64,000 nucleotides of DNA from Bacteroidaceae bacterium. Its GTDB lineage: Bacteria > Bacteroidota > Bacteroidia > Bacteroidales > Bacteroidaceae. The stretch is from NCBI GenBank assembly GCA_017517925.1, contig JAFWXS010000047.1:2864-66863 (forward strand), given 5' to 3'. A program made the position numbers and the translations under genes. Positions 2,228-60,452 of the stretch are shown here, piece after piece. Under the pieces are notes generated by a model. That model did no database searches and was not told where the DNA came from. It was given only the letters and a program-made list of their open reading frames with translations. The first letter of the stretch is position 1. The number at the start of each line of letters is the position of its first letter.

Positions 2228-2443
2228 ATGAAGATATACAAGAAACCTCTGCTGATGTGTCTGGTACTCGTCCTCTATGTCACGGGTATGGCCATCTACT
2301 TCGTGCCGCGCAATCATGAAATGACCTCCACAGGGAAGGCGGTCACCGTGGTGCTGGCCTATGTGCTGGTATTGGCCCTGTGGATAGCCATGCAGTACCG
2401 CGAGAAGTTGCGGCACAAGCGCGGTGATAATGAGGGGAAATAG
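2228..2443 (+). CDS. Small two-TM membrane protein, hypothetical
   Basis: 71 aa with two hydrophobic segments. A TATCTTTG -7 box lies just upstream (around 2211-2218). Confidence 0.5.
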   Translation: MKIYKKPLLMCLVLVLYVTGMAIYFVPRNHEMTSTGKAVTVVLAYVLVLALWIAMQYREKLRHKRGDNEGK

Positions 2444-2568
2444 GCGGATTGTTCACGGGAAATCATTAAAAATACTCAAACGCATAGTTTTTTTTGGCTG
2501 ATTGCGTTCGAATGACTATTTTTGCAGACGAAAATGCAATAATATTCACTAACTAATAACGCAATTTT

Positions 2569-4224
2569 ATGTTTGAAGGACAACCGAAAGGACTTTATGC
2601 ATTGGCCTTAGCGAACACAGGTGAGCGCTTCGGCTACTACACGATGCTTGCAATCTTTACACTCTTCTTGCAAGCAAAGTTCGGTTTCTCAGCTGCTGAG
2701 GCCGGACAGTTTTATTCTATCTTCTTGGCAGGCGTATACTTCCTGCCCATGGTAGGTGGTATCCTCGCCGATAAGTTTGGCTATGGCAAAATGGTTACCA
2801 TCGGTATTTTCATTATGTTTCTCGGCTATGCTCTGTTGGCTATTCCCACCGGTGCCGATACTATGGGATTGACCTTGATGATTGGTGCTCTCGCACTGAT
2901 TGCTTTGGGTACGGGTCTGTTCAAAGGTAACCTTCAAGTGATGGTAGGTAACCTTTACGATGAGGCAAAGTATTCATCGCGTCGTGACTCAGGTTTCTCA
3001 CTCTTCTACATGGCTATTAATATCGGTGCAATGTTCGCACCTACTGCAGCTACTGCCGTTACCAACTGGATTCTTGGCAAGGCAAACTTTACTTACCATG
3101 CTCGTATTCCTGAGTTGGCGCATCAATTCTTGAATGGCGACATCAACCCTGAGAACCTCGCAGCCCTTGGTCGTTTGCAGGCTGAGCAAGGTTTTGTGGG
3201 TGATATGTCGACATTCTGCCACACTTATCTTGACCAATTGGCACAATCTTATCACTATGGTTTTGCTGTAGCTTGTATCTCACTCGTGGCCTCTATTGCT
3301 ATTTATTATGGTTTCCGTAGCACATTCAAGCATGCCGACTACAATGCCAAGACACAGCCCAAGACTGGCGATATGGCTGTTGAGGAGTTGACACCGAAGC
3401 AGACCAAAGACCGTCTCGTGGCTCTCGTGCTCGTGTACATCGTAGTGCTCTTCTTCTGGATGGCTTTCCACCAGAATGGTGTGACTCTGACTTTCTTTGC
3501 TCGTGATTACACGGCTCCCTTTGCTACAGGCTTCATGAGCCTCGGCATCAGCGTATGGAACCTTGCAGTAGCTGCCATTGCCGTATATGCACTCTTCGGC
3601 ATTTTCCAGAACAAGAACAAGATGGTTCCTTCTGTGATTGCAGTCGTATGCTTAGGCTTCCTCGTGTATCAGTACATTGGCCTGCCTGAATCTACCCCTA
3701 TCTTGCCGCAAATTTTCCAACAATTCAATCCCTTCTTTGTAGTAGCCCTTACGCCCGTTTCGATGGCCGTATTTGGTGCATTGGCCAAGAAAGGTAAGGA
3801 ACCTTCTGCTCCTCGCAAGATAGGTCTTGGTATGCTTATCGCCTCACTAGGCTTTGTTATTATGGCTGTAGCCTCTTTCGGTCAGCCTAATCCCACGGCC
3901 CTCAGTGCCGGTGCCGAAGCCAACCTCGTATCGCCTAACTGGCTTATCTCAACTTACCTTGTGCTTACTTTCGGTGAGTTGTTGCTCTCTCCAATGGGTA
4001 TCTCCTTTGTGACTAAGGTAGCTCCTCCCAAATATAAGGGCTTGATGATGGGTGGTTGGTTTGCTGCTACAGCTATCGGTAATTATCTTACTGCTATTGG
4101 CCCGACATTGTGGGATAGAGATATTCCTCTTTGGGTAGTATGGGCTGTATTTATTGCCGTATGCCTCATTTCGTTTGTCTTCATCTTCTCTATTATGAAG
4201 AAGCTTGAGGCTGTAGCGAAGTAA
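2569..4224 (+). CDS. POT/PTR2-family di/tripeptide:proton symporter
   Basis: 551 aa and polytopic. The GERFGYYTM and ADKFGY motifs are typical of the POT family. Confidence 0.9.
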   Translation: MFEGQPKGLYALALANTGERFGYYTMLAIFTLFLQAKFGFSAAEAGQFYSIFLAGVYFLPMVGGILADKFGYGKMVTIGIFIMFLGYALLAIPTGADTMGLTLMIGALALIALGTGLFKGNLQVMVGNLYDEAKYSSRRDSGFSLFYMAINIGAMFAPTAATAVTNWILGKANFTYHARIPELAHQFLNGDINPENLAALGRLQAEQGFVGDMSTFCHTYLDQLAQSYHYGFAVACISLVASIAIYYGFRSTFKHADYNAKTQPKTGDMAVEELTPKQTKDRLVALVLVYIVVLFFWMAFHQNGVTLTFFARDYTAPFATGFMSLGISVWNLAVAAIAVYALFGIFQNKNKMVPSVIAVVCLGFLVYQYIGLPESTPILPQIFQQFNPFFVVALTPVSMAVFGALAKKGKEPSAPRKIGLGMLIASLGFVIMAVASFGQPNPTALSAGAEANLVSPNWLISTYLVLTFGELLLSPMGISFVTKVAPPKYKGLMMGGWFAATAIGNYLTAIGPTLWDRDIPLWVVWAVFIAVCLISFVFIFSIMKKLEAVAK

Positions 4225-6845: not shown

Positions 6846-8963
6846 ATGAAATTAAAACAACCCAAGGTGACCCTCTGTGCATTGGCACTTGCAGGTGCAA
6901 CCCTAAACATGACCTCTTGTATGGACAACAACAAAAACCCCTTCTACAGCGAGTATGACACACCGCATCAGACGGTGCCGTTCGATAAGATAAAACTGGA
7001 GCACTACGAGCCCGCCATCATGGAGGGCATCAAGCAGCATGCTGCCGAGGTGGAGGCTATCATCAATAACCCCGATGAACCGACATTTGAGAATACCATT
7101 GTAGCCTTGGAGTATGCAGGTGACCTGCTCGATCGCGTATTGACCGTGTTCTTCACACTCAACAGCGCCGAGACATCGGATGAAATGCAGGCTCTGGCAC
7201 AGAAACTCTCTCCCGTACTCACCGAGCACTCTAACAACATCTCGCTCAATGAGAAGCTTTTTGCACGTGTCAAGGCTGTGTATGAGTCTACCGACATGAG
7301 CACTCTCACCACCGAGCAGCAGCGACTGTTGCAGAAGAACTACGATAGCTTTGCCCGCAGTGGTGCTAACCTTAACGATGAGGACAAGGCCAAGTATCGT
7401 GAGCTGACCACCGAACTGAGCCAGGCGACTCTGGCTTTCGGGCAGAACACGTTGAAGGCGACCAATAATTATGCACTGAATGTTACCGACTCGACCCGCT
7501 TGAAGGGACTTCCCGAATCGGTGCTCGAGGCTGCCGCACAGACCGCCAAGGAGAAGGGGCATGAGGGATGGACCTTCACTCTGCATGCGCCCAGTTACAG
7601 CCCCTTGATGATGTACTGCGAAGACCGCGACCTGCGCCACGAGCTCTACATGGCCTACAACACACAGTGTGTGCAGAGCAATGACTACAACAATGAGGAG
7701 CTGGTGAAGAAAATCGTCAACCTCCGCCTCGCCATCGCCCAGCTCCTGGGTTACGAGAGCCATGCCGACTATGTGCTTGAGAACCGCATGGCCGAGAACG
7801 CTGCCAACGTGAACAACCTGCTCGACGAACTGCTCGTAGCTTACCTCCCTGCAGCCAAGGAAGAGGTGAAGGCCGTGCAGGAGATGGCAGCCCGCACTGA
7901 GGGCAAAGACTTCGAGCTGATGCCTTGGGACTGGTCGTTCTACTCAGAAAAACTTCGTGTAGAGAAATATAGCCTCAACGACGAGATGGTGCGCCCCTAT
8001 TTCAAACTCGAGAATGTAACCGACGGTGTGTTCGGCCTCGCCACACGCCTCTATGGCATCACCTTCGTGGAGAACAAGGACATCCCCGTATACCACCCCG
8101 ACGTGAAAGCCTATGATGTGCTTGACAAGGATGGCTCGTACCTCGCTGTCATCTACACCGACTTCTTCCCCCGTGCCGGCAAGCGCTCGGGCGCATGGAT
8201 GACCAGTTTCAAGGAGCAGTACGTGAAGGATGGCGTAGACAGCCGACCCCACGTGACCATCACGATGAACTTCACCAAGCCTACAGAGAGTAAGCCTGCA
8301 CTGCTCACACAAGATGAGGTGGAAACCTTCCTTCACGAGTTCGGCCACGCCCTGCATGGCATCTTCTCTGCAACAACTTATCCCTCAATGGGTGGTACCA
8401 ATGTATACCGCGACTTCGTGGAGCTGCCCTCGCAACTGATGGAGAACTTCTTGCCCAAGAAGGAGTTCCTCGCCACCTTCGCCTACCATTATGAGACGGG
8501 CGAGCTCATCCCCGACGAGCTCATCGAACGTATCGTACGTGCACAGAACTACAATGCCGCTTACCTCTGTATCCGTCAGTTGAGCCTCGGCATCCTCGAT
8601 ATGGCATGGTACTCACGCACCACACCGTTCGAGGGCGATGTGCTGGCCTACGAGCAGGAGGCATGGAAGTCAACCCAATTGTTGCCCTCAGCCCAAGGCA
8701 CAAATATGACCACTCATTTCGGGCATATCATGTCGGGCGGCTACTCGGCAGGCTACTATAGCTACAAGTGGTCCGAGATGCTTGATGCCGATGCCTTCTC
8801 GCTCTTCGAGGAAAAGGGCATCTACAATGAGGAGGTAGCCACATCGTTCCGTGAGAACATCCTCGAGAAGGGCTGTTCGGAGCATCCGAAGGAGCTCTAC
8901 CGCCGCTTCCGCGGGCAGGATGCCACCATCGATGCGTTGATGAAGCGGGACGGGATCAAGTAA
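6846..8963 (+). CDS. dcp: M3-family peptidyl-dipeptidase (Dcp-like), lipoprotein/secreted
   Basis: 705 aa. It has the HEFGHALHG zinc motif, an M3 layout and a signal peptide with Cys. Confidence 0.9.
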   Translation: MKLKQPKVTLCALALAGATLNMTSCMDNNKNPFYSEYDTPHQTVPFDKIKLEHYEPAIMEGIKQHAAEVEAIINNPDEPTFENTIVALEYAGDLLDRVLTVFFTLNSAETSDEMQALAQKLSPVLTEHSNNISLNEKLFARVKAVYESTDMSTLTTEQQRLLQKNYDSFARSGANLNDEDKAKYRELTTELSQATLAFGQNTLKATNNYALNVTDSTRLKGLPESVLEAAAQTAKEKGHEGWTFTLHAPSYSPLMMYCEDRDLRHELYMAYNTQCVQSNDYNNEELVKKIVNLRLAIAQLLGYESHADYVLENRMAENAANVNNLLDELLVAYLPAAKEEVKAVQEMAARTEGKDFELMPWDWSFYSEKLRVEKYSLNDEMVRPYFKLENVTDGVFGLATRLYGITFVENKDIPVYHPDVKAYDVLDKDGSYLAVIYTDFFPRAGKRSGAWMTSFKEQYVKDGVDSRPHVTITMNFTKPTESKPALLTQDEVETFLHEFGHALHGIFSATTYPSMGGTNVYRDFVELPSQLMENFLPKKEFLATFAYHYETGELIPDELIERIVRAQNYNAAYLCIRQLSLGILDMAWYSRTTPFEGDVLAYEQEAWKSTQLLPSAQGTNMTTHFGHIMSGGYSAGYYSYKWSEMLDADAFSLFEEKGIYNEEVATSFRENILEKGCSEHPKELYRRFRGQDATIDALMKRDGIK

Positions 8964-26737: not shown

Positions 26738-29700
26738 TTACATTACCACAAACTTCTTTCCGTTTTGGATGTAGATACCGGTAGGCAGAGTTTCCCGAGT
26801 TCCACTTACGCGCATACCCTTCAGATTATATATAGGAGTATCGTCAGCATCCATAATGACATTCTCAACACCATCTACTACATCATCCTCAATGAAGAAG
26901 AACTCCTTCCACTGGTTAGCAACCATATAAGCATTGAGGCTTCCTACAGGTACTTTAAGCACACAGCTCCACTTATTAATATCATCAAGAGCCTGTGAGC
27001 CACAAACAGGAGGAGTTACTGCATAACTGGTGATTGCTGTTAGGTTAGTACAATCAGAGAAGGCTTCAGTACCAATTGTTTTCATGCTACGACCAAACGA
27101 GAACCCTTCAAGGCTACTACAACCCGAGAAGGCATAGTTTCCGATACTTTTCACGCCATTACCGATGGTCACATCCTGCAAGTTGGTGCAGCCATAGAAC
27201 TCATTGTCGTAAATCTGCTCCTCACGATCGGTAATTACTATCGTGCGCAGCGAGGTATTGCGATAGAAAGGAGAGTAACCCTCACTGCTCGTGGTGCTAT
27301 AGGTAATCTTACCACCGATATATACCGAGTCGAGCGGGCAATCGGCGAACAACGCTGATGAGCCGTTGCTACCCAAACTTAATGCTGTGATGCGGTCTTC
27401 GATGATGACATCGGCCAACTTGCTGCAGCCAACGAATACATTGTCACCTATCTTCGTCACGGCTTGTGGTATCGTGATTGTGGGGAGGGATGAGCAACCT
27501 TGGAAAGCATAGTTGTTGATGGTGGCTACACCACTGCCTATCTTGACATCCTTCAATGAAGAGCAACCAGAGAAAGCATTTGCTTCCAATATCTTAACCT
27601 TATAGCCAATCTCAACGTTCTCCAATCCTATGCAGCCATTGAACATTGTCCCATTAACCTTAATCAAGCCATTGCCCAATACTGCACTCTTCATACCTCT
27701 ACATTCCTTAAAAGCATAGTTGCCGATTGAGGTTATATTATCGCCAATGATAATCTTTTCCAATCCGCAATTGGCAAAGGTATATTCCTTCACATTCTTC
27801 AGTCCATCGCCTATCACCGCATTCTTCATCACTGTGCAACCATAGAAGCAATACGTACCTACCGACTTTACAGAATTGGGGATTACGATTTCTTGCAAAC
27901 TTGTACATCCGCGGAACGCATCATTGCCCAATGAAGTGACCTTATCGCCCAATGTCGCCGACTTCAATGAAACGCAGTCGTAGAAAGCTGAACTATTAAC
28001 GGCACCTGTATTAGCAACAATGGCCGTTTCCAAAGCACCGCAACCACGGAAAGACTTATCGCCTACATATCCAACATTAGATATATCCAGTGACTTGATT
28101 CCATCGCAATCATAAAATGCTTGGCTTTCGATATTTCCTTGGTTTGAGATTGTAGCAGCCAACATTCCATCGCAATCATAGAATGCCTGACTTCCCACAT
28201 TGCCTTCGTTAGAAATCTCTACACTTTGTACACTATCACAATCGTAAAAAGCGTAATCACCGATATTCCCTTTGTGTGAAATATTCACCTCTTTGATATG
28301 CTTGTTCCCATAGAACGTGTATGGCATCACCTCCTTCACAGTCATGGCAATACCCTTGAACGAGGCCGTCTCGCTGACGTTAATCGACTCTGCAGTACTA
28401 TCGTATGCACAATCAATCGCATGACAAGTGCGCTCCGATGGACTTACGGGCACATACTTCACCCCATCCACCTCGAACATGCTGCTCAGGTAGGGATATA
28501 CTTTTACATTGCTAACTCTTGTATACAGGTCGTTAGCCACATAGTTGATGCTTCCCTGAGCATTGGCATAGCCCGTAGGGGGCGTATTGGTCAGCCAAAT
28601 GACCTTTTCGGGAGTACTGAATGCACCGTTGCCAATGGACAGTACGCCACTGCCTATAGTTACAGAATACAAGCTGCTGCAATTATAGAAAGCCTTGTCT
28701 CCAATGCTCGTCACGCCCTCGGGGATGGTGATGGAGGTGAGGCTGCTGCAATTTTGGAAAGTATATTCTTCGATGCTCGTCACGCCCTCGGGAATGTTAA
28801 TGGCCTTGAGGCTGCTGCAACCAGAGAAAGCATACTCGCCAATACTCGCCACACCCTCGGGGATGGTGATGGCGGTAAGGCTGCTGCAAGAATAGAAAGC
28901 GCAATCTCCGATTTTATAATTCTCCCCATTGTAACTATCCGGCAATACGATTTCGGTATCATTGCCTATGTAGTTCACTAATGAATAAATGCCATTGGAA
29001 GTATAGAATTGATAGTCACCAACAGTGGTAAGTTCACCTCCTTGATATACTGCTTTTGCAAAATAGGCGACATTGCCATAGTTGCTTGAGCCTTTAGATA
29101 ATGACAGATTGGAATAGTTGATCACTTTATAGAGGCTGCTGCAACCACTGAAAGCAATGCTTCCAATGCTCGTCACGCCCTCGGGGATGGTGATGGTGGC
29201 GAGGCTGCTGCAATCACTGAAAGCAATGCTTCCAATGCTCGTCACGCTCTCGGGGATGGTGATGGCGGTGAGGCTGCTGCAATTAGAGAAAGTATAGCTT
29301 TCAATGCTCGTCACGCCCTCGGGGATGGTGATGGCGGTGAGGCTGCTACAATCAGAGAAAGCATACTCTCCAATGCTCGTCACACCCTCGGGGAGGATGA
29401 TGGAGGTGAGGCTGCTACAATCAAAGAAAGCATACTCTCCAATGCTCGTCACGCTCTCGGGGAGGGTGATGGCGGTGAGGCTGCTGCAATCACGGAAAGC
29501 AAAACTTCCAATACTCGTCACATTATCACCAATGGTTAGAGTTGTCAACTTTCCTTTGTTATAGAACGGAGAATAGCCATAAAAGCTACCGCTACTGTAA
29601 CTCAAGTTACGTCCCAAGTAAACCTCTTCTAACGGGCAGTCATAGAACAGACCTTCGCCAGTACTAATGCTATAATAATAATAGTTATATCCCAACGATA

Positions 29701-30070
29701 AGGTTGTGTTGCCATCCTCGATGATGACTTTCTTGAGAGCGGTACAATTGCCAAAAGCATAGTTTCCAATGCTCGTCACGCTCTCGGGGATGGTGATGGC
29801 GGTGAGGCTGCTGCAACCATCGAAAGCCCTCTCTCCAATGCTCGTCACACGATACGTCTTGCTATTATAGGTGACGGTGGTGGGGAGGGCGATGGAGCCG
29901 GAGTAATCTTCGTTGCTGTACGAATTTCCCTTGAAGGTCACACCGACCGTGCGCGCAGCTTCAGAGGTGATGTTGTAGTAGATACCCTCTACCGAAAAAT
30001 CATGTGCACTTACCGTGAGGCTGCACAATAGCGTGGCTATCGTGGTCAGCCAAAGTTTAAATGTTTTCAT
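26738..30070 (-). CDS. BspA-type leucine-rich-repeat (LRR_5) surface protein with a T9SS C-terminal sorting domain
   Basis: 1110 aa with a signal peptide. It carries dozens of ~23-aa units (SLTAITIPEGVTSIGxYAFxxCSSL). The C-terminus (IYNLKGMRV...GIYIQNGKKFVVM) looks like a Por secretion tail. Confidence 0.9.
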   Translation of the reverse strand: MKTFKLWLTTIATLLCSLTVSAHDFSVEGIYYNITSEAARTVGVTFKGNSYSNEDYSGSIALPTTVTYNSKTYRVTSIGERAFDGCSSLTAITIPESVTSIGNYAFGNCTALKKVIIEDGNTTLSLGYNYYYYSISTGEGLFYDCPLEEVYLGRNLSYSSGSFYGYSPFYNKGKLTTLTIGDNVTSIGSFAFRDCSSLTAITLPESVTSIGEYAFFDCSSLTSIILPEGVTSIGEYAFSDCSSLTAITIPEGVTSIESYTFSNCSSLTAITIPESVTSIGSIAFSDCSSLATITIPEGVTSIGSIAFSGCSSLYKVINYSNLSLSKGSSNYGNVAYFAKAVYQGGELTTVGDYQFYTSNGIYSLVNYIGNDTEIVLPDSYNGENYKIGDCAFYSCSSLTAITIPEGVASIGEYAFSGCSSLKAINIPEGVTSIEEYTFQNCSSLTSITIPEGVTSIGDKAFYNCSSLYSVTIGSGVLSIGNGAFSTPEKVIWLTNTPPTGYANAQGSINYVANDLYTRVSNVKVYPYLSSMFEVDGVKYVPVSPSERTCHAIDCAYDSTAESINVSETASFKGIAMTVKEVMPYTFYGNKHIKEVNISHKGNIGDYAFYDCDSVQSVEISNEGNVGSQAFYDCDGMLAATISNQGNIESQAFYDCDGIKSLDISNVGYVGDKSFRGCGALETAIVANTGAVNSSAFYDCVSLKSATLGDKVTSLGNDAFRGCTSLQEIVIPNSVKSVGTYCFYGCTVMKNAVIGDGLKNVKEYTFANCGLEKIIIGDNITSIGNYAFKECRGMKSAVLGNGLIKVNGTMFNGCIGLENVEIGYKVKILEANAFSGCSSLKDVKIGSGVATINNYAFQGCSSLPTITIPQAVTKIGDNVFVGCSKLADVIIEDRITALSLGSNGSSALFADCPLDSVYIGGKITYSTTSSEGYSPFYRNTSLRTIVITDREEQIYDNEFYGCTNLQDVTIGNGVKSIGNYAFSGCSSLEGFSFGRSMKTIGTEAFSDCTNLTAITSYAVTPPVCGSQALDDINKWSCVLKVPVGSLNAYMVANQWKEFFFIEDDVVDGVENVIMDADDTPIYNLKGMRVSGTRETLPTGIYIQNGKKFVVM
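28690..29830. repeat. Near-identical ~69-bp DNA repeats encoding consecutive LRR units
   Basis: Repeated strings such as ccaatgctcgtcacgccctcggggatggtgatggcggtgaggctgctgcaa occur many times. Confidence 0.85.
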
Positions 30071-30267
30071 TGTTGTTTGTATTTAAAATTAGGGATAAAA
30101 ATTCTTTCCATAGTGTTTAAAACAAGTTCCTCATTGCTTTCTTCATATAGAAATTTTCCGTCTTCATACGATAATAGGCCTGTTTGTAACAATTCTTCCT
30201 CGAATTTCTGAAGCTTATCGGGGCTAATCTGTTCTATAATGAACATGATGGATAACTGTTTCTTCAT
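30067..30267 (-). CDS. Small acidic hypothetical protein (66 aa)
   Basis: Its start and stop make ATGA overlaps with both neighbours (30264-30267 and 30067-30070). It is very AT-rich and has no signal peptide. Confidence 0.55.
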   Translation of the reverse strand: MKKQLSIMFIIEQISPDKLQKFEEELLQTGLLSYEDGKFLYEESNEELVLNTMERIFIPNFKYKQQ

Positions 30268-30716
30268 AATTCATTTACATTGTTATTTATTATGTTTATA
30301 AGCTCCATAAACAGATTGTAATCCATGGCTCCTCTAGCAGAAAATGATGTAGGTTTAACAGTAGAATAATCTGCAATGATTATCCGTTGGTCTTCCCTAA
30401 AAATTAGTCCGTGCGCAATGGAGTTACGCAAATGTGATAAAAATGATAGGACTTTATCCTTATTTTTAGATTTAGTGAAACAAATTTTATTTTTGAATGT
30501 ACTCAAGTCTACTTTTTGGATTTCCCTTAACCCTGTTTTCGATAGTTCTAAATTCCCAAGAAATAAGGGAAGAATGTGTACTAATTGAGGATGACAACGA
30601 TATACATCTTCTAAAGCATAGAAAAACCCAAATCCGCCCTTTTCATACATACAGATAAAACGATAAAGATCCTTTACCTCATCTTTTGTAAAGCCATTGA
30701 TTTCTTCTTGTTTCAT
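30264..30716 (-). CDS. Hypothetical 150-aa protein with an R-x4-H (HEPN-like) motif
   Basis: The motif LSHLRNSIAHGLIF (R97...H102, nt 30411-30428) matches the HEPN Rx4-6H / RNxxAH signature. The gene is AT-rich, cytoplasmic in type, and first in the three-gene unit. Confidence 0.6.
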   Translation of the reverse strand: MKQEEINGFTKDEVKDLYRFICMYEKGGFGFFYALEDVYRCHPQLVHILPLFLGNLELSKTGLREIQKVDLSTFKNKICFTKSKNKDKVLSFLSHLRNSIAHGLIFREDQRIIIADYSTVKPTSFSARGAMDYNLFMELINIINNNVNEL

Positions 30717-30801
30717 AGTTGCCTAAATTCTTGCCTACCACTCTCCCCGCTTCAGCATTAAGTTAATACTACGGTTATGGATCCTGTTCACGTAGGGACA
30801 T

Positions 30802-30843
30802 AAAAAAGACGTGGGAGAAACTTTCTTGCTTATCCCAATCGTC
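30802..30843 (-). terminator. Intrinsic terminator at the 3' end of structured-RNA copy 1
   Basis: The RNA reads GACG-AUU-GGGAUAAGC-AAGAAA-GUUUCUCCC-A-CGUC followed by UUUUUU. Confidence 0.6.
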
Positions 30844-31225
30844 CGGCCTTCGCATTGCCTATGTACAAGGATAAGCAACTCAGCCAGCCCACGCCGTGCG
30901 GTTTATAAACAACCATCGCCTATGGCACTGCGCGAGATTTTTCACTTCGTTCAAAATGACAAATTTGTTCAGAATGACAAAGCGAGGCCTCGCGGCCATA
31001 GGTTAGGGGTAATAAACGCCCGAAGTGGACGCTTCGTTGCGGTATCTTCTTGTACATAATCAAAGTTGCGAAGTTTGACGATCAGAAGATAACGTTCAGA
31101 AAACGTCCTTTTCCTGCTCCTCGGCGAGGCTCGGTGCTGACGCGAAGTCTGCGGTGAGCGATGCGCTCTCAAAGCACGGAATCCAATATGTCTTGACCCA
31201 CCCATCCCTTGCGAGCTGGCTGAAT
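30802..31225 (-). ncRNA. Candidate structured noncoding RNA or cis-regulatory leader, copy 1 (~420 nt), family unknown
   Basis: It has its own TAnnTTTG box upstream, a terminator at the 3' end, no credible ORF, and a diverged paralog at 60686-60978 that keeps the same helices. Confidence 0.6.
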
Positions 31226-31230
31226 CGCAG

Positions 31231-31238
31231 CAAATGTA
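31231..31238 (-). promoter_or_regulatory. -7 box TACATTTG for structured-RNA copy 1
   Basis: Exact TAnnTTTG match on the minus strand. I did not find a clean -33 TTTG at the canonical spacing. Confidence 0.45.
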
Positions 31239-31299
31239 GTAAATAATTAGGAATTAGGAGTTAGATTTTACAAATTATTCATAAAAATTGCCTTTGGCC

Positions 31300-31607
31300 C
31301 CTTGCTTTTCCCCTACGGGCCAGCGACCTAAAGGTTCGGGCGGCGAACACGTTTCACGGGAAATTCATGGAAATTCATGTTTTAAACGCAAACCGAAGTT
31401 CGCATGAAACAAAAAGCTGTGGGGAACTTGAATATTTTTATAATACGTTTCCCTGCGCGGTAGTTAGTGAGGTATTCCGCGGTAATTAGCGAGGTACACC
31501 GCGATAGTTAGCGAGGCATTCCGCGGTAGTTAGCGAGGTATACCGCGATAGTGTCATCCAGAACGAAGTGAACCTTTAGGTCGCTGGCCCGTAGGGGAAA
31601 AGCAAGG
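31300..31607. repeat. Perfect 38-bp inverted repeat (31300-31337 / 31570-31607) enclosing 232 bp; MITE-like or cruciform element
   Basis: CCTTGCTTTTCCCCTACGGGCCAGCGACCTAAAGGTTC and its exact reverse complement. Confidence 0.9.
31456..31553. repeat. Tandem array of 4.5 copies of the 22-bp unit CGCGRTARTTAGYGAGGYAYWC
   Basis: The units lie at 31456-31477, 31478-31499, 31500-31521, 31522-31543, plus a partial unit at 31544-31553. Confidence 0.9.
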
Positions 31608-31668
31608 ATCTCGCAAACGTCTCATGCTAAGTCCCAGCGCGAGATCCCTCTCTAAGCTCGGGATGACA
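31552..31668. repeat. REP-like palindrome of the same family as 1238-1333, with nested modules
   Basis: tgtcatccagaacgaagtgaacc pairs with gagatccctctctaagctcgggatgaca. The interior contains the IR GGATCTCGC...GCGAGATCC. Confidence 0.6.
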
Positions 31669-31697
31669 GAGACTTCTGGGTAAACTCTATATTATTG

Positions 31698-31733
31698 CCA
31701 AAAACAATAGGGGCAGGCACAAGGCCTACCCCT
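31698..31733 (-). terminator. Intrinsic terminator of pepC
   Basis: The minus strand reads AGGGGTAGGC-CTTGT-GCCTGCCCCT followed by ATTGTTTTTGG. Confidence 0.7.
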
Positions 31734-31765
31734 ACGGATTGTTTGGCTAACAAGAGAGCGTGGAA

Positions 31766-33154
31766 TTACTCCTCACCCATGAACATGGGGTCCCAGCAGG
31801 GGAGCATGATGGGCTTCTGCTTGGCGGCCTTCAGTACCTCGGGGGTGGCGTACTTCTTGTTCACCACTAAGCGGAACATGTACTCATTGAACCACTCGTC
31901 GGTCATGATGAGATGTCCGTTGTGGCCTGAGGCGGCACCCCAGCTGTTTTCCACTTTCCACATGGTGGGACGACCCTCTGCATCTACGTCGACAGCCATC
32001 ATGGTCATGGCATGCGACGAGCCGCTGTCGAAGGTGCGGATGCGCTGTGCCTTGTCCATGCCGAACTTGATGCCGAGGAGCGACTCGTAGTCGTAGTTGT
32101 CCATATCGAGCAGGCCGCGCTTGCTGTCGAGCTCCTTGGCCACGTCGCAAGAGAAGTACATCATCACGGAGTCCTTGATGGAGGCGATGGCCATCTCTTT
32201 GATTTCGTCGAGGGGGAGGTTGAGGTAGAGCCAGTTGTGACCGTCGTAGGTGTGGCGGTCGTACTGTATCTCGTAGGTCTTCCAGTACTCGCGGGTGGGG
32301 TCGTTCATGAGCATGATGTAGTCGTTCTGGTAGTCCTCGCCTACGAACTCGGCGTAGAACGACTGCGGGGTGTACTCCTTAGGCTCCCACATGTACTTGC
32401 CCTGGGCATCCTTGGGAGCCCACTTGAAGGTGGTGACGGGCTCGCCGAAGCCGAGCACGAGGATGCGATATACCTCGCTCAGCATGTCCTCCTTGAGGGC
32501 CTGCAGCTCTTTCTTCTTGGCACCGGCGGCAATACGGTCGCGCAGGATGAGGCCATCTTCACGCAGCTTGCGGGTGATGAGTCCGGTGAAGCGTGAGGTG
32601 TTGTTGCTGGCATAGGTCTCGGGCATCACGCCGGAAGGCACGATACCATACTTGGCTACGAGGTCGGCCACACCGGTGAAGGTACCGCCGTCGCTCAGGG
32701 GGTGCTTGAAGAGCCACTCCACGGTCTTGTCTTCCATAGGTTTGTCGCCCGTGTCGATAACGGCCTGGAGGAAGAGGTTTGACTTCTCCAACTGGTCGTA
32801 GAAGAAGTTGTACACCTGCGAGAAGGTGAGCCCGGGTAGGTTGTGCTCGTTGATGACACGGCTACGCATCACGTTGAGGCCGGTGAAGAGCCAGCAGCGG
32901 CCCGATGACTTCTGGTCGGTGATGCCGCGTGAGGGCACGCTGTGGGCAAAGTAGGTGTCCATCTCTACCTGGTTGGCCTGGTTCACGGCCAGGTTGCGCA
33001 CGTCGTTGGTGGCCATGGCATTGTGGATGGCGCGGTCGGTAGCGGTGAGCGCATTGTCGGTTTTGAACTTCTCCAGCATCTGCGGAGTGATACTCTGTGC
33101 TGCAGCGCCGAGGCTCATGACGGCGAGGGCGGCTGCGAATAGTGTTTTCTTCAT
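31766..33154 (-). CDS. pepC: Aminopeptidase C (C1-family, bleomycin-hydrolase-like), secreted
   Basis: The internal ATG at 33154 gives the signal peptide MKKTLFAAALAVMSLGAAAQ. The SSGRCWLF active-site Cys motif is present. Confidence 0.9.
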   Translation of the reverse strand: MKKTLFAAALAVMSLGAAAQSITPQMLEKFKTDNALTATDRAIHNAMATNDVRNLAVNQANQVEMDTYFAHSVPSRGITDQKSSGRCWLFTGLNVMRSRVINEHNLPGLTFSQVYNFFYDQLEKSNLFLQAVIDTGDKPMEDKTVEWLFKHPLSDGGTFTGVADLVAKYGIVPSGVMPETYASNNTSRFTGLITRKLREDGLILRDRIAAGAKKKELQALKEDMLSEVYRILVLGFGEPVTTFKWAPKDAQGKYMWEPKEYTPQSFYAEFVGEDYQNDYIMLMNDPTREYWKTYEIQYDRHTYDGHNWLYLNLPLDEIKEMAIASIKDSVMMYFSCDVAKELDSKRGLLDMDNYDYESLLGIKFGMDKAQRIRTFDSGSSHAMTMMAVDVDAEGRPTMWKVENSWGAASGHNGHLIMTDEWFNEYMFRLVVNKKYATPEVLKAAKQKPIMLPCWDPMFMGEE

Positions 33155-58862: not shown

Positions 58863-60452
58863 TTACTTCATCACTTTCTTCACCATGCCACCCTGCTTGA
58901 TGATATAAATCTGGGGTGTAGCATCTGTGGTGTAGATACGCTGGCCTGCAAGGTTGTACATCTCTACCTCTTCATTGTTGTCGGCATCAACCATATCCAC
59001 AGAGGAAGCCTTCTGTGCCAAGTCATAGATGTTAACCTCCACTACGTTAGAGGGAGCCGACTCGCCTGTTGCATAAACCGCACAGATCCAAACCTTACAA
59101 TCAGGACCTGATCCCAAGCTTACATTCTGATAGGTGTCAGGGTCATATTCTGTATTCTCAAAGTTGGTCCACCAGAATCCCTGCTTGGTTTCCCATGCAT
59201 TCACATTGTTGTAGACACCGGTCTTCTCCTCAGCAGTGAGGCCGTAGGTATAGCCTGTGCTTGCATTGTATGAACTTCCAAAGTCAACATATACCTTATA
59301 CTCGGTAATGTCCGAAGCCTCGGCGGGAACATCCCACTTCATGTTCAACTCATAGTATGTGCTTACATATCCGTTATTATCATAATCAACCTTCTTGGCA
59401 CCCAGTATCTGGAAGTTCTGCATGGGGAGGTTACCCTCGTCCTTCACGCTCACTACAGTAAAATCAGAGATGTTCTTCTTCTCGCCATTTACCACAGCAA
59501 GAACTGCCACCTGATGTTCACCGTCGAGGAGCATGGGAGTTGTGTATTCGGTTGTTTCTACCTCGACCACATTGTTGTCATACATTACTACATAGGTGGT
59601 AGCACCAGCTACGGCATCCCATGTCACCTTCACCAAGTTACCCTTGAGTGCCTCGGCCTTTACGTTGGCAGGAATCAATGATGCGTCCAATGTTGCATAT
59701 ACATATCTCCACTCCTTTTCAGTCACGCCATAGCGAGAGCTTGCCCATTCTGTTTTGGTCTTTGTCATGCCGTTCTCATAGGTATATGTGGTCTTACCTT
59801 GCAGTGTTGACCACTCCTGACCCTCACCCAAGTTAGGATTATAGTAGGCCTGTGTCATCTCAATCAAATAGCTATTCGCGTCGTAAGTATAGAACTCACC
59901 AAGACCCTTTGAATCGAACTCGCCTGTAGAATAGTTCTTATTCATCTGAATCCTTGACACGAGTTGTTTGTTCTCATTGAAAGTAAGTTCGTAGTGCACC
60001 TCATAGGTAGCCTCTCCCTCTGCATTAGTGTTCTTCATCACCTTGTAATGGCCATTCTCGAATTCCTCAAAAAGTTGACCGCCTGTCGATGTCACCTCAC
60101 CAGCCTGATCAAGGTATTGTAATGTAATCTCTGTGTTGTTGCCTTGGGTATCATACTTGTAAGTGGCAATCTGAGACTTGTAGAAAACACCGCTTGTATT
60201 CCATGTCTCTTTGGTGGCTACAGTACCGTTTTCGTTATAGGTGTAGCGATAATGGCCATAGGCACTGATTTCAATAGCCATCTTGTTGTTACTATCATAG
60301 TAATAGCAGTTAGAAGTCTCATACACCGGCTCCTCCAGTTTTTCTCCTGTAGTAGCATCGAGTGTGTTGTAGCCCTTCTGCTCCACAAGATACTGAGCCG
60401 AAAGACTTGTTGCAGCCATTACGGCAGCGAAAAGAAGTAAAGTTTTCTTCAT
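58863..60452 (-). CDS. T9SS-secreted protein with YD-like repeats and Fn3-like region
   Basis: 529 aa with a signal peptide. It carries repeated YxYDxxG/YTYENG motifs. The C-terminus (MYNLAGQRIY...IYIIKQGGMVKKVMK) looks like a Por secretion tail. Confidence 0.8.
   Translation of the reverse strand: MKKTLLLFAAVMAATSLSAQYLVEQKGYNTLDATTGEKLEEPVYETSNCYYYDSNNKMAIEISAYGHYRYTYNENGTVATKETWNTSGVFYKSQIATYKYDTQGNNTEITLQYLDQAGEVTSTGGQLFEEFENGHYKVMKNTNAEGEATYEVHYELTFNENKQLVSRIQMNKNYSTGEFDSKGLGEFYTYDANSYLIEMTQAYYNPNLGEGQEWSTLQGKTTYTYENGMTKTKTEWASSRYGVTEKEWRYVYATLDASLIPANVKAEALKGNLVKVTWDAVAGATTYVVMYDNNVVEVETTEYTTPMLLDGEHQVAVLAVVNGEKKNISDFTVVSVKDEGNLPMQNFQILGAKKVDYDNNGYVSTYYELNMKWDVPAEASDITEYKVYVDFGSSYNASTGYTYGLTAEEKTGVYNNVNAWETKQGFWWTNFENTEYDPDTYQNVSLGSGPDCKVWICAVYATGESAPSNVVEVNIYDLAQKASSVDMVDADNNEEVEMYNLAGQRIYTTDATPQIYIIKQGGMVKKVMK

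Follow-up and report, generated by a model that had tools for sequence, protein, structure and literature searches.

A 64,000-nucleotide stretch of the genome of a Bacteroidaceae bacterium (NCBI GenBank assembly GCA_017517925.1, contig JAFWXS010000047.1, positions 2,864 to 66,863 of the forward strand; hereafter the window, meaning this whole stretch) carries a low-GC operon in which the genes for a 150-amino-acid (aa) HEPN-like protein, a 66-aa acidic protein and a 1110-aa BspA-type leucine-rich repeat (LRR) surface protein form one three-gene unit with overlapping stop and start codons. Judged from its sequence, the 150-aa protein is probably a HEPN-type RNase, and it appears to be a new family-level variant within a known superfamily. 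The unit is preceded by a structured leader RNA of a generic, abundant family that occurs in gut and rumen Bacteroidales. Across deep divergence, HEPN-like genes are found repeatedly in such leader-headed operons, and the 66-aa gene is confined to one clade. HEPN RNases lie at the core of bacterial conflict systems such as Cas13, Csm6, HepT, PrrC/RloC and the Abi proteins. Among the major variable proteins at the surface of gut, rumen and oral Bacteroidales are those of the BspA-type LRR kind, whose regulation is poorly understood. The genes of the unit and the predicted active-site motif are located as follows.

30264..30716, minus strand: gene of the 150-aa HEPN-like protein, cistron 1 (open reading frame (ORF), homologs, profile, structural model, dN/dS)
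30408..30434, minus strand: codons H95-L-R97-N98-S-I-A-H102-G103, the Rx4H predicted active-site motif (HLRNSIAHG), read from the sequence
30067..30267, minus strand: gene of the 66-aa acidic protein, cistron 2 (ORF, conserved in the closest clade only, dN/dS)
26738..30070, minus strand: gene of the 1110-aa BspA-type LRR surface protein, cistron 3 (Pfam LRR_5, E=1.3e-191)

A first-pass annotation of the window had described the two small genes as a two-gene module. Both ORFs, their ATGA overlap and the numbering of R97 and H102 were confirmed, but the pair is the front of a three-gene operon rather than a module of its own: ATGA overlaps occur at both junctions, between the stop of the 150-aa gene and the start of the 66-aa gene and between the stop of the latter and the ATG of the LRR gene. 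The LRR protein has a signal-peptide-like N-terminus and is also matched by LRR adhesin models in NCBIfam. The AT-richness that had been noted is pronounced, with G+C fractions of 0.318 for the 150-aa ORF and 0.313 for the 66-aa ORF against a window mean of 0.503, 0.463 in the LRR gene and 0.585 in the upstream pepC. The low-GC island spans about 5 kb and is flanked by housekeeping genes, with PNPase, a thioredoxin-like protein and RNase R at one end and aminopeptidase C (PepC), YbeY and a nucleoside-recognition transporter at the other. This fits the earlier proposal that the module was acquired horizontally. The 66-aa protein is acidic, as annotated (isoelectric point 4.7, with 12 D+E and 8 K+R). 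Neither small protein has a basic residue and hydrophobic run at its N-terminus when read by eye, in agreement with the annotated lack of signal peptides. The ratios of nonsynonymous to synonymous substitution rates (dN/dS) between diverged lineages are 0.16-0.32 for the 150-aa gene and 0.12-0.25 for the 66-aa gene; two near-identical pairs gave noisier and higher values of 0.56 and 0.39. Both genes are under purifying selection.

A bare Rx4H motif is trivial. In an 84-member alignment of the 150-aa family, however, H95, R97, N98 and H102 are at least 90% conserved despite an identity of 19-34% to the window protein beyond its three closest homologs, which makes the motif more than a chance occurrence; D116 is conserved to the same degree, and R97, N98 and H102 are invariant in the closest 22 sequences. 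A word-indexed search had returned five relatives, in all of which SFLxHLRNSIAHG is invariant, and an exhaustive profile search recovered 163 representatives at E<=1e-3, mostly of 130-160 aa (135-160 aa in Bacteroidales). The highest sub-threshold Pfam matches of the window protein and its relatives are all to HEPN families (PF18736, PF18735, PF18737, PF18739 and PF06479). For the window protein itself, PF18735 comes first (E=0.008) and PF18736 (pEK499_p136) second (E=0.026). At E<=0.01, PF18736 is matched by 58 of the 84 members, PF18735 by 8 and PF18737 by 4, and the best E-value for PF18736 across the alignment is 8.7e-07. When 20 relatives were scanned singly, 19 scored 14-23.5 bits against PF18736, which was the top or second match for nearly every one; the remaining relative, P0153, had no PF18736 match at E<=0.1. 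All of these scores lie below the PF18736 gathering cut-off of 26.6 bits, and for that reason the family is a sub-threshold sister of PF18736 and not a curated member. Occasional weak Pfam matches of the relatives are to Ribonuc_2-5A (KEN) and Apea HEPN. NCBIfam returned one motif-level match, to Cas13e (E=0.003), and sequence searches of the PDB with three profiles (A2, A4 and A7) gave noise only (E>0.2).

The motif can also be placed in a predicted structure. An AlphaFold model built from the 84-sequence alignment has a predicted local distance difference test score (pLDDT) of 96.6 and a predicted template-modelling score (pTM) of 0.90, and was used in place of an earlier AF2 model from 5 sequences (pLDDT 68.7). 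It contains helices at residues 11-26, 35-41/45-53 (broken), 88-101 and 133-146 and strands at 57-60, 77-80, 105-108, 111-117 and 125-132. Helix 88-101 ends at R97-H102, and a beta-hairpin (105-117) comes next. In the HEPN superfamily, the residue that follows the arginine of the conserved Rx4-6H motif is polar (N, D or H), and the motif is found where core helix 3 ends and the next loop begins; inserts between helices 2 and 3 are described, as is a post-motif beta-hairpin in Csx1 (PMC3710099). R97-N98-S-I-A-H102 has this form, and its helix-end position in the model agrees with the description of helix 3. With HEPN families at the top of the Pfam matches, all below cut-off, a motif conserved in homologs and this position in the model, the HEPN-type call of the first-pass annotation stands; at the level of sequence and motif, we consider it likely that the 150-aa protein belongs to the HEPN superfamily.

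Relatives from Firmicutes (L018, L025, L027, L034 and others, from Peptoniphilus, Anaerococcus and Bacillus badius) are proteins of about 300 aa that hold the HEPN-like domain in their N-terminal half and have neither the leader RNA nor an LRR neighbour. Their C-terminal region gives a weak match to the SfsA restriction-endonuclease-like domain (E=0.03).

The genomic context of the HEPN-like homologs was surveyed at 20 Bacteroidales genome loci found with the 22-sequence alignment, 19 of which include upstream sequence. A gene for a signal-peptide-like protein, called by a crude test for a basic residue and a hydrophobic run, adjoins the HEPN homolog in 17 of the 20 loci. Of the 19, 13 have the leader upstream of the homolog; they are from Prevotella, Paludibacteraceae, Bacteroidaceae and other Bacteroidales. 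The adjoining secreted-protein genes are mostly of the BspA LRR type, with a PBP-like gene in L010 and collagen-like genes in L019, L023, L028 and L029. L010 and L012 are loci of Prevotella jejuni DSM 26989 and P. pallens ATCC 700821. In seven loci (L009, L010, L012, L013, L014, L022 and L037) the stop codon of the HEPN gene overlaps the start of a signal-peptide protein gene, often BspA LRR, and the HEPN proteins of these coupled loci share only about 28-35% identity. More remote members are found in other contexts: those of L015 and L024 have kinase-like neighbours, and those of Peptoniphilus, Anaerococcus and Bacillus are about 300 aa long.

The pairing of the 150-aa and 66-aa genes is much narrower. 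In a collection of 5.8 billion proteins the 66-aa family comprises 8 clusters, all in the closest clade and with 65-77% identity. Within that clade the gene always lies between the HEPN-like and LRR genes (L050, L052, L182 and L183). L001, whose HEPN protein is 55% identical, has no 66-aa gene, and its HEPN gene is followed by a 95-nt gap and then the LRR gene; L006, L010, L012, L013, L014, L022 and L037 likewise lack a small partner, and the HEPN stop overlaps the start of a secreted-protein gene. The converse is seen in L176-L181 (22 contigs), where the HEPN gene is cut to a 31-codon stub (MNTKEINGFTEIEVVNLYRFIYLYEKGG...) and the 66-aa and LRR genes are intact. This allele is located as follows.

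L176, 4890-4985 (also in L177-L181): HEPN deletion allele, with the first ~28 codons left and then a stop

Since many HEPN homologs lack the 66-aa gene and L176-L181 keep it without HEPN, each gene persists without the other and the two are not an obligate pair. The co-occurrence expected of a functional module is confined to the closest clade, an outcome that the first-pass annotation itself had named as evidence against its proposal. In L011 a 75-aa ORF occupies the position of the 66-aa gene, and homology between the two was not detected (no BLASTP match; hhalign probability 11%). Searches of Pfam and NCBIfam and a profile search detected no known antitoxin or DNA-binding domain in the 66-aa protein, and no NTP_transf_2 or Polbeta domain was found in it or in neighbouring proteins, in line with the annotated absence of an MNT next to the 150-aa gene.

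One further locus, L051 (protein P0002, 950-1129), is 100% identical to the window up to position 30391 and then diverges inside the HEPN gene. Its product is 129 aa long with an unrelated C-terminus, and the tail has no match among the other fetched sequences. An insertion, a variant allele or a chimeric assembly might account for the divergence.

Upstream of the unit lies the leader RNA, whose parts are located as follows.

31231..31238, minus strand: Bacteroidetes-type -7 promoter motif TACATTTG (TAnnTTTG; motif scan)
30717..31228, minus strand: structured leader RNA (5' untranslated region), ~500 nt (conservation upstream of HEPN homologs, covariation; 5' end taken from the promoter)
30796-31118, minus strand: leader core matching the family profile
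31101-31108 with 31027-31034, minus strand: P1 helix
31067-31073 (CTTCGCA) and 30848-30854 (TGCGAAG), minus strand: kissing-loop partners
30895-30808, minus strand: terminator-like long hairpin GGCGTGGG...CCCACGTC, with a T-run at 30807-30802
30732..30756, minus strand: conserved post-terminator box GCTGAAGCGGGGAGAGTGGTAGGCA, ~15 nt upstream of the ATG

A sigma-70-type promoter scan is not applicable to Bacteroidetes, and the TAnnTTTG consensus was scanned for instead. TACATTTG is its sole occurrence on the minus strand between 29900 and 31700. At about 40 of 94 loci the motif stands 35-40 nt from the RNA; where a hairpin is inserted, as in the window, the distance is 70-115 nt. A structured RNA with a terminator directly upstream of the module had been annotated earlier, and a terminator-like hairpin with its T-run indeed ends about 85 nt before the ATG of the 150-aa gene; a simple terminator scan, which considers only loops of 3-8 bases, does not report it. 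The post-terminator box (GCUGAAnCnGGG...UAGGCA), between the T-run and the start codon, is common to loci with and without HEPN, and a HEPN-specific cis element in this spacer was rejected on that ground.

Covariation was assessed in a 73-sequence alignment. P1 (GGACGUUU / AAACGUCC) shows 32 double-change cells, and the long terminal hairpin (GGCGUGGG / CCCACGUC, and inside it UUGCUUAUCC / GGGAUAAGC) is conserved. A 7-bp loop-loop pairing joins the loop of the 5' hairpin to the apical loop of the terminal hairpin; this kissing loop is 100% paired with 62 double-change cells (CUUCGCA/UGCGAAG versus UCUCGCA/UGCGAGA). An alternative pairing of the P1 3' strand with the 5' strand of the terminal hairpin is conserved and has no covariation support. 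From these pairings we infer a four-segment attenuator layout, in which 1:2 together with 3:4 (the terminator) would compete with the alternative 2:3. The leader is a single structured unit whose only repeat is an 18-nt duplication in a variable region.

Rfam 15 has no match to the leader, either at E<=1 on 29500-32500 or at gathering score on the whole window, and nothing relevant to it was found in the literature searched. The window, L001 and the distant L006 share the noncoding element upstream of the HEPN-like gene, and its 3'-domain pattern matches at least 120 metagenomic contigs and one IMG/VR contig. Across leader loci, about 45-100 nt separate the hairpin from the start of the first ORF. 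What follows is very diverse: among the matches listed, 100 first ORFs fall into 58 clusters, of which 45 are singletons, and an ORF of the HEPN family lies within 2.5 kb in 3 of 113 evaluable leader loci. Many first ORFs encode secreted proteins, and others are small cytoplasmic orphans followed by an LRR gene. Such orphans (about 80-230 aa, no Pfam family) occupy the slot between the leader and the LRR or HEPN gene in L055, L094, L105, L162, L164, L009, L013, L007, L169 and L080; none of ten small first ORFs tested belongs to a Pfam family. The slot suggests a hot spot for acquired small genes. The window itself has a second copy of the leader.

60939-60678, minus strand: second leader copy, downstream of two tRNA-Asn genes, no HEPN gene
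58863-60452, minus strand: gene of a 529-aa signal-peptide protein, no Pfam or NCBIfam family

The second copy lies 226 nt upstream of the 529-aa secreted-type protein gene. The C-terminal ending of the 529-aa protein resembles those of LRR proteins.

The reading that we favour, and hold tentatively, is a conflict role for the 150-aa protein, as an abortive-infection-like or cassette-addiction RNase with the 66-aa protein as a lineage-specific modulator. The leader family would head many Bacteroidales secreted-protein operons, with a variable slot of small, mostly orphan cytoplasmic genes between leader and secreted-protein gene; in the window, the HEPN-like and 66-aa genes would fill this slot, and all three genes would be expressed by read-through of the leader. 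The 150-aa protein is predicted to be a metal-independent RNase that uses R97, N98 and H102 and that probably dimerises, as other HEPN enzymes do. It would be an accessory conflict gene, travelling and co-expressed with exchangeable surface-protein cassettes. The acidic 66-aa protein may modulate it in one lineage, possibly as an inhibitor, and would not be an obligatory antitoxin.

A number of observations weigh against this reading. Conflict genes usually have shifting neighbours; that translational coupling to secreted-protein genes persists here across deep divergence is instead a hint of a role bound up with the operon. Nor does the locus belong to a defence island, its neighbours being housekeeping genes; no phage relatives were found by protein in IMG/VR and no plasmid relatives in PLSDB. 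PADLOC-DB v2 has no family at E<=1 for either small protein, and PHROGs gave very weak matches only (E 0.05-0.35), to families of unknown function. The HEPN assignment has its own difficulties. The window protein scores 14.7 bits against PF18736 and does not reach the gathering cut-off. The structural check of the assignment gave a divided answer: the Rx4H motif lies at a helix end in the AlphaFold model, but Foldseek recovers no solved HEPN structure, with no match at E<=1e-3 in PDB and BFVD and all template-modelling scores below 0.25. The model has five beta-strands, and Y24-E25, invariant in the closest 22 sequences, places its glutamate at the end of the first helix, not the second; the acidic ExxxK/R typical of HEPN sits in helix 2, and the Ex3[KR] pattern is absent at E25. 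Finally, the promoter is called from one consensus motif.

The main rival is that the RNase is dedicated to RNA processing or regulation in the operon, cleaving or binding the leader or the polycistronic mRNA to tune the surface-protein message, with the 66-aa protein as a cofactor or working with the LRR protein. The deep, translationally coupled link of HEPN to leader-headed secreted-protein operons argues for it, as does the retention of the 66-aa gene with the LRR gene after HEPN loss, and the HEPN superfamily includes RNA-processing enzymes (PMC3710099). Yet about 97% of the sampled leader loci have no HEPN gene, spacer and post-terminator box do not differ between loci that have the gene and loci that lack it, the other slot genes are unrelated orphans, and distant members are found elsewhere (the kinase-like neighbourhoods of L015 and L024; the ~300-aa Firmicutes fusion proteins). 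We consider this explanation unlikely. A small chance is likewise given to a functional wiring of the RNase to the attenuator-type leader class that would control exchangeable secreted-protein cassettes, in either of two versions. The RNase might process the leader or the operon transcript, or it might act in a 'receptor-coupled' abortive infection in which it is made only when the LRR protein is displayed; the co-encoded LRR surface protein could then serve phage as a receptor. In both versions, leader, variable small-gene slot and surface-protein gene would combine into a modular locus of a new kind. Another possibility, which we regard as improbable, is that the protein is not a nuclease at all and that its motif binds RNA or a ligand, or that it is an accessory factor (chaperone, export helper) for the secreted protein. 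A fold without a solved relative, singly scored Pfam matches that all fall below cut-off and the tight coupling to signal-peptide protein genes are compatible with this, whereas the near-invariance of the R, N and H of the catalytic motif is the pattern of active HEPN RNases, and the heterogeneity of the downstream secreted proteins (LRR, PBP-like, collagen-like) is hard to fit to a specific chaperone.

Two kinds of toxin-antitoxin (TA) system also have to be weighed. A classical type II system, in which a HEPN RNase toxin is neutralised by the coupled acidic 66-aa protein and the pair stabilises the island, would account for the ATGA coupling, the acidity of the partner (isoelectric points 4.6-4.9), the conservation of the pair in the closest clade (window, L050, L052, L182, L183), the purifying selection on both genes and the lone 66-aa gene of L176-L181, as if an antitoxin had survived the loss of its toxin. 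It is quite unlikely all the same. L001 (55% identity) and L006, L010, L012 and L014 (28-35%) have no small partner, a condition in which a lethal toxin could not be maintained. The 66-aa family has 8 clusters against 163 HEPN representatives, homology of the L011 75-aa ORF is not demonstrable, no known antitoxin or DNA-binding domain was detected, and the toxin-first gene order without an MNT partner is a further point against it. The layout of promoter, RNA, terminator-like hairpin and nuclease gene, which the first-pass annotation had found superficially reminiscent of type III loci, is that of ToxIN, and the RNA does lie upstream of most Bacteroidales HEPN homologs; the structured RNA would then be the antitoxin of the HEPN RNase, with the terminator setting the RNA:toxin ratio. 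This likeness breaks down on the distribution of the RNA, a generic leader upstream of very diverse genes. There are at least 120 RNA loci with diverse downstream genes, and the presence of HEPN in only 3 of the 113 evaluable ones among the matches listed excludes a dedicated antitoxin of the ToxIN kind. The second copy in the window precedes the 529-aa secreted protein and no HEPN gene, the RNA is not a tandem-repeat array, and it is missing at 6 of 19 evaluable Bacteroidales HEPN loci and at all Firmicutes loci. A type III-like arrangement of any sort is, in our judgement, very improbable.

Comparison with known systems places the unit beside several of them and within none. Like pEK499_p136 (PF18736), the commonest Pfam match in the family (58 of 84), the 150-aa family consists of small stand-alone proteins with Rx4H and an asparagine after the arginine; it differs in its single-scan scores (14-23.5 bits against a cut-off of 26.6) and in having no plasmid relatives in PLSDB. 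The published contexts of pEK499_p136 are restriction-modification, ART/Macro, NamA and Pgl operons (Anantharaman et al. 2013, PMC3710099), whereas the context here is a leader RNA and a secreted LRR protein. The HEPN-MNT systems (HepT/MntA, type II/VII TA) share the combination of a small HEPN gene and a small partner gene with overlapping codons, but the unit in the window lacks a nucleotidyltransferase, has as partner a 66-aa acidic orphan of one clade and begins with the HEPN gene, and either gene also occurs where its partner is missing. ToxIN has the same order of promoter, structured RNA, terminator and endoribonuclease gene; its nuclease is ToxN/AbiE-like and not HEPN-like, and the RNA of the present unit has no repeat array, is not specific to the nuclease and is a widespread leader of secreted-protein genes.

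A stand-alone HEPN protein without an antitoxin nevertheless has a precedent in gp57r of mycobacteriophage Butters, a stand-alone protein with a HEPN motif that defends against phages without a partner and is non-toxic alone according to its authors, who cite their own unpublished growth data (bioRxiv 10.1101/2023.01.03.522681). The 150-aa protein resembles gp57r and the AbiK/Abi-type HEPN proteins in being a single small HEPN-motif protein with no dedicated antitoxin. It differs in that gp57r is encoded by a prophage and is only weakly assigned to HEPN; at the window locus neither a phage nor a defence-island context was seen. TA and HEPN cassettes stabilise integron arrays, and the present arrangement is similar in that a small conflict-type gene lies among exchangeable acquired cassettes next to a conserved upstream element. 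It differs in having no integrase or attC, the conserved element being a transcribed structured leader with its own predicted promoter and not a site of recombination. An 'Integron cassette HEPN' is listed among the HEPN families (PMC3710099). We infer that cassettes may be exchanged at leader loci.

The literature searched holds no description of a link between a HEPN-like family and a leader RNA with BspA-type operons. The analysis defines an unclassified, confidently foldable HEPN-like family without a solved relative, whose Bacteroidales members lie outside defence islands, in translational coupling with the genes of BspA-type adhesins and further secreted proteins. It also exposes an abundant leader RNA absent from Rfam, with its own putative promoter, a covarying kissing loop and attenuator-like pairings, which alone may outrank the HEPN gene in interest. 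A functional link between RNase and leader, if there is one, would provide a new route joining RNA-level control, horizontal cassette exchange and possibly phage defence at the cell surface of dominant gut bacteria.

Several minor observations concern the neighbourhoods of the homologs. L182 carries a canonical HepT-like/nucleotidyltransferase (MNT) pair (2414-3096, minus strand) about 750 nt upstream of its homologous HEPN-66aa-LRR operon; the pair is unrelated in sequence to the 150-aa family. L014 has two small adjacent genes (7581-8260, minus strand) downstream of its HEPN-LRR operon, which, to judge by their N-termini, may be a HigB/HigA-type toxin-antitoxin pair. A record labelled 'UNVERIFIED Bacteriophage sp.' was rejected as a phage relative; by its ORF translations it is a bacterial-looking contig with TatA/TatC-like and radical-SAM-like genes. 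The LRR protein of the window ends in '...GIYIQNGKKFVVM', which we assume to resemble the tails of type IX secretion system (T9SS) substrates, and no T9SS C-terminal sorting domain (TIGR04183, PF18962) was detected in it (Pfam at E<=1, NCBIfam at E<=1e-3).

Just upstream of the leader promoter, the arms of a perfect 38-nt inverted repeat (31300-31337 / 31570-31607) enclose a 232-nt segment with four to five tandem repeats of 22 nt (31456-31565). No TAnnTTTG motif was seen in this segment on reading. L051, otherwise 100% identical to the window here, starts with a GT that matches the opposite end of the segment, which hints that the segment may be inverted in another sample. The segment could be an invertible element or a miniature inverted-repeat transposable element (MITE).

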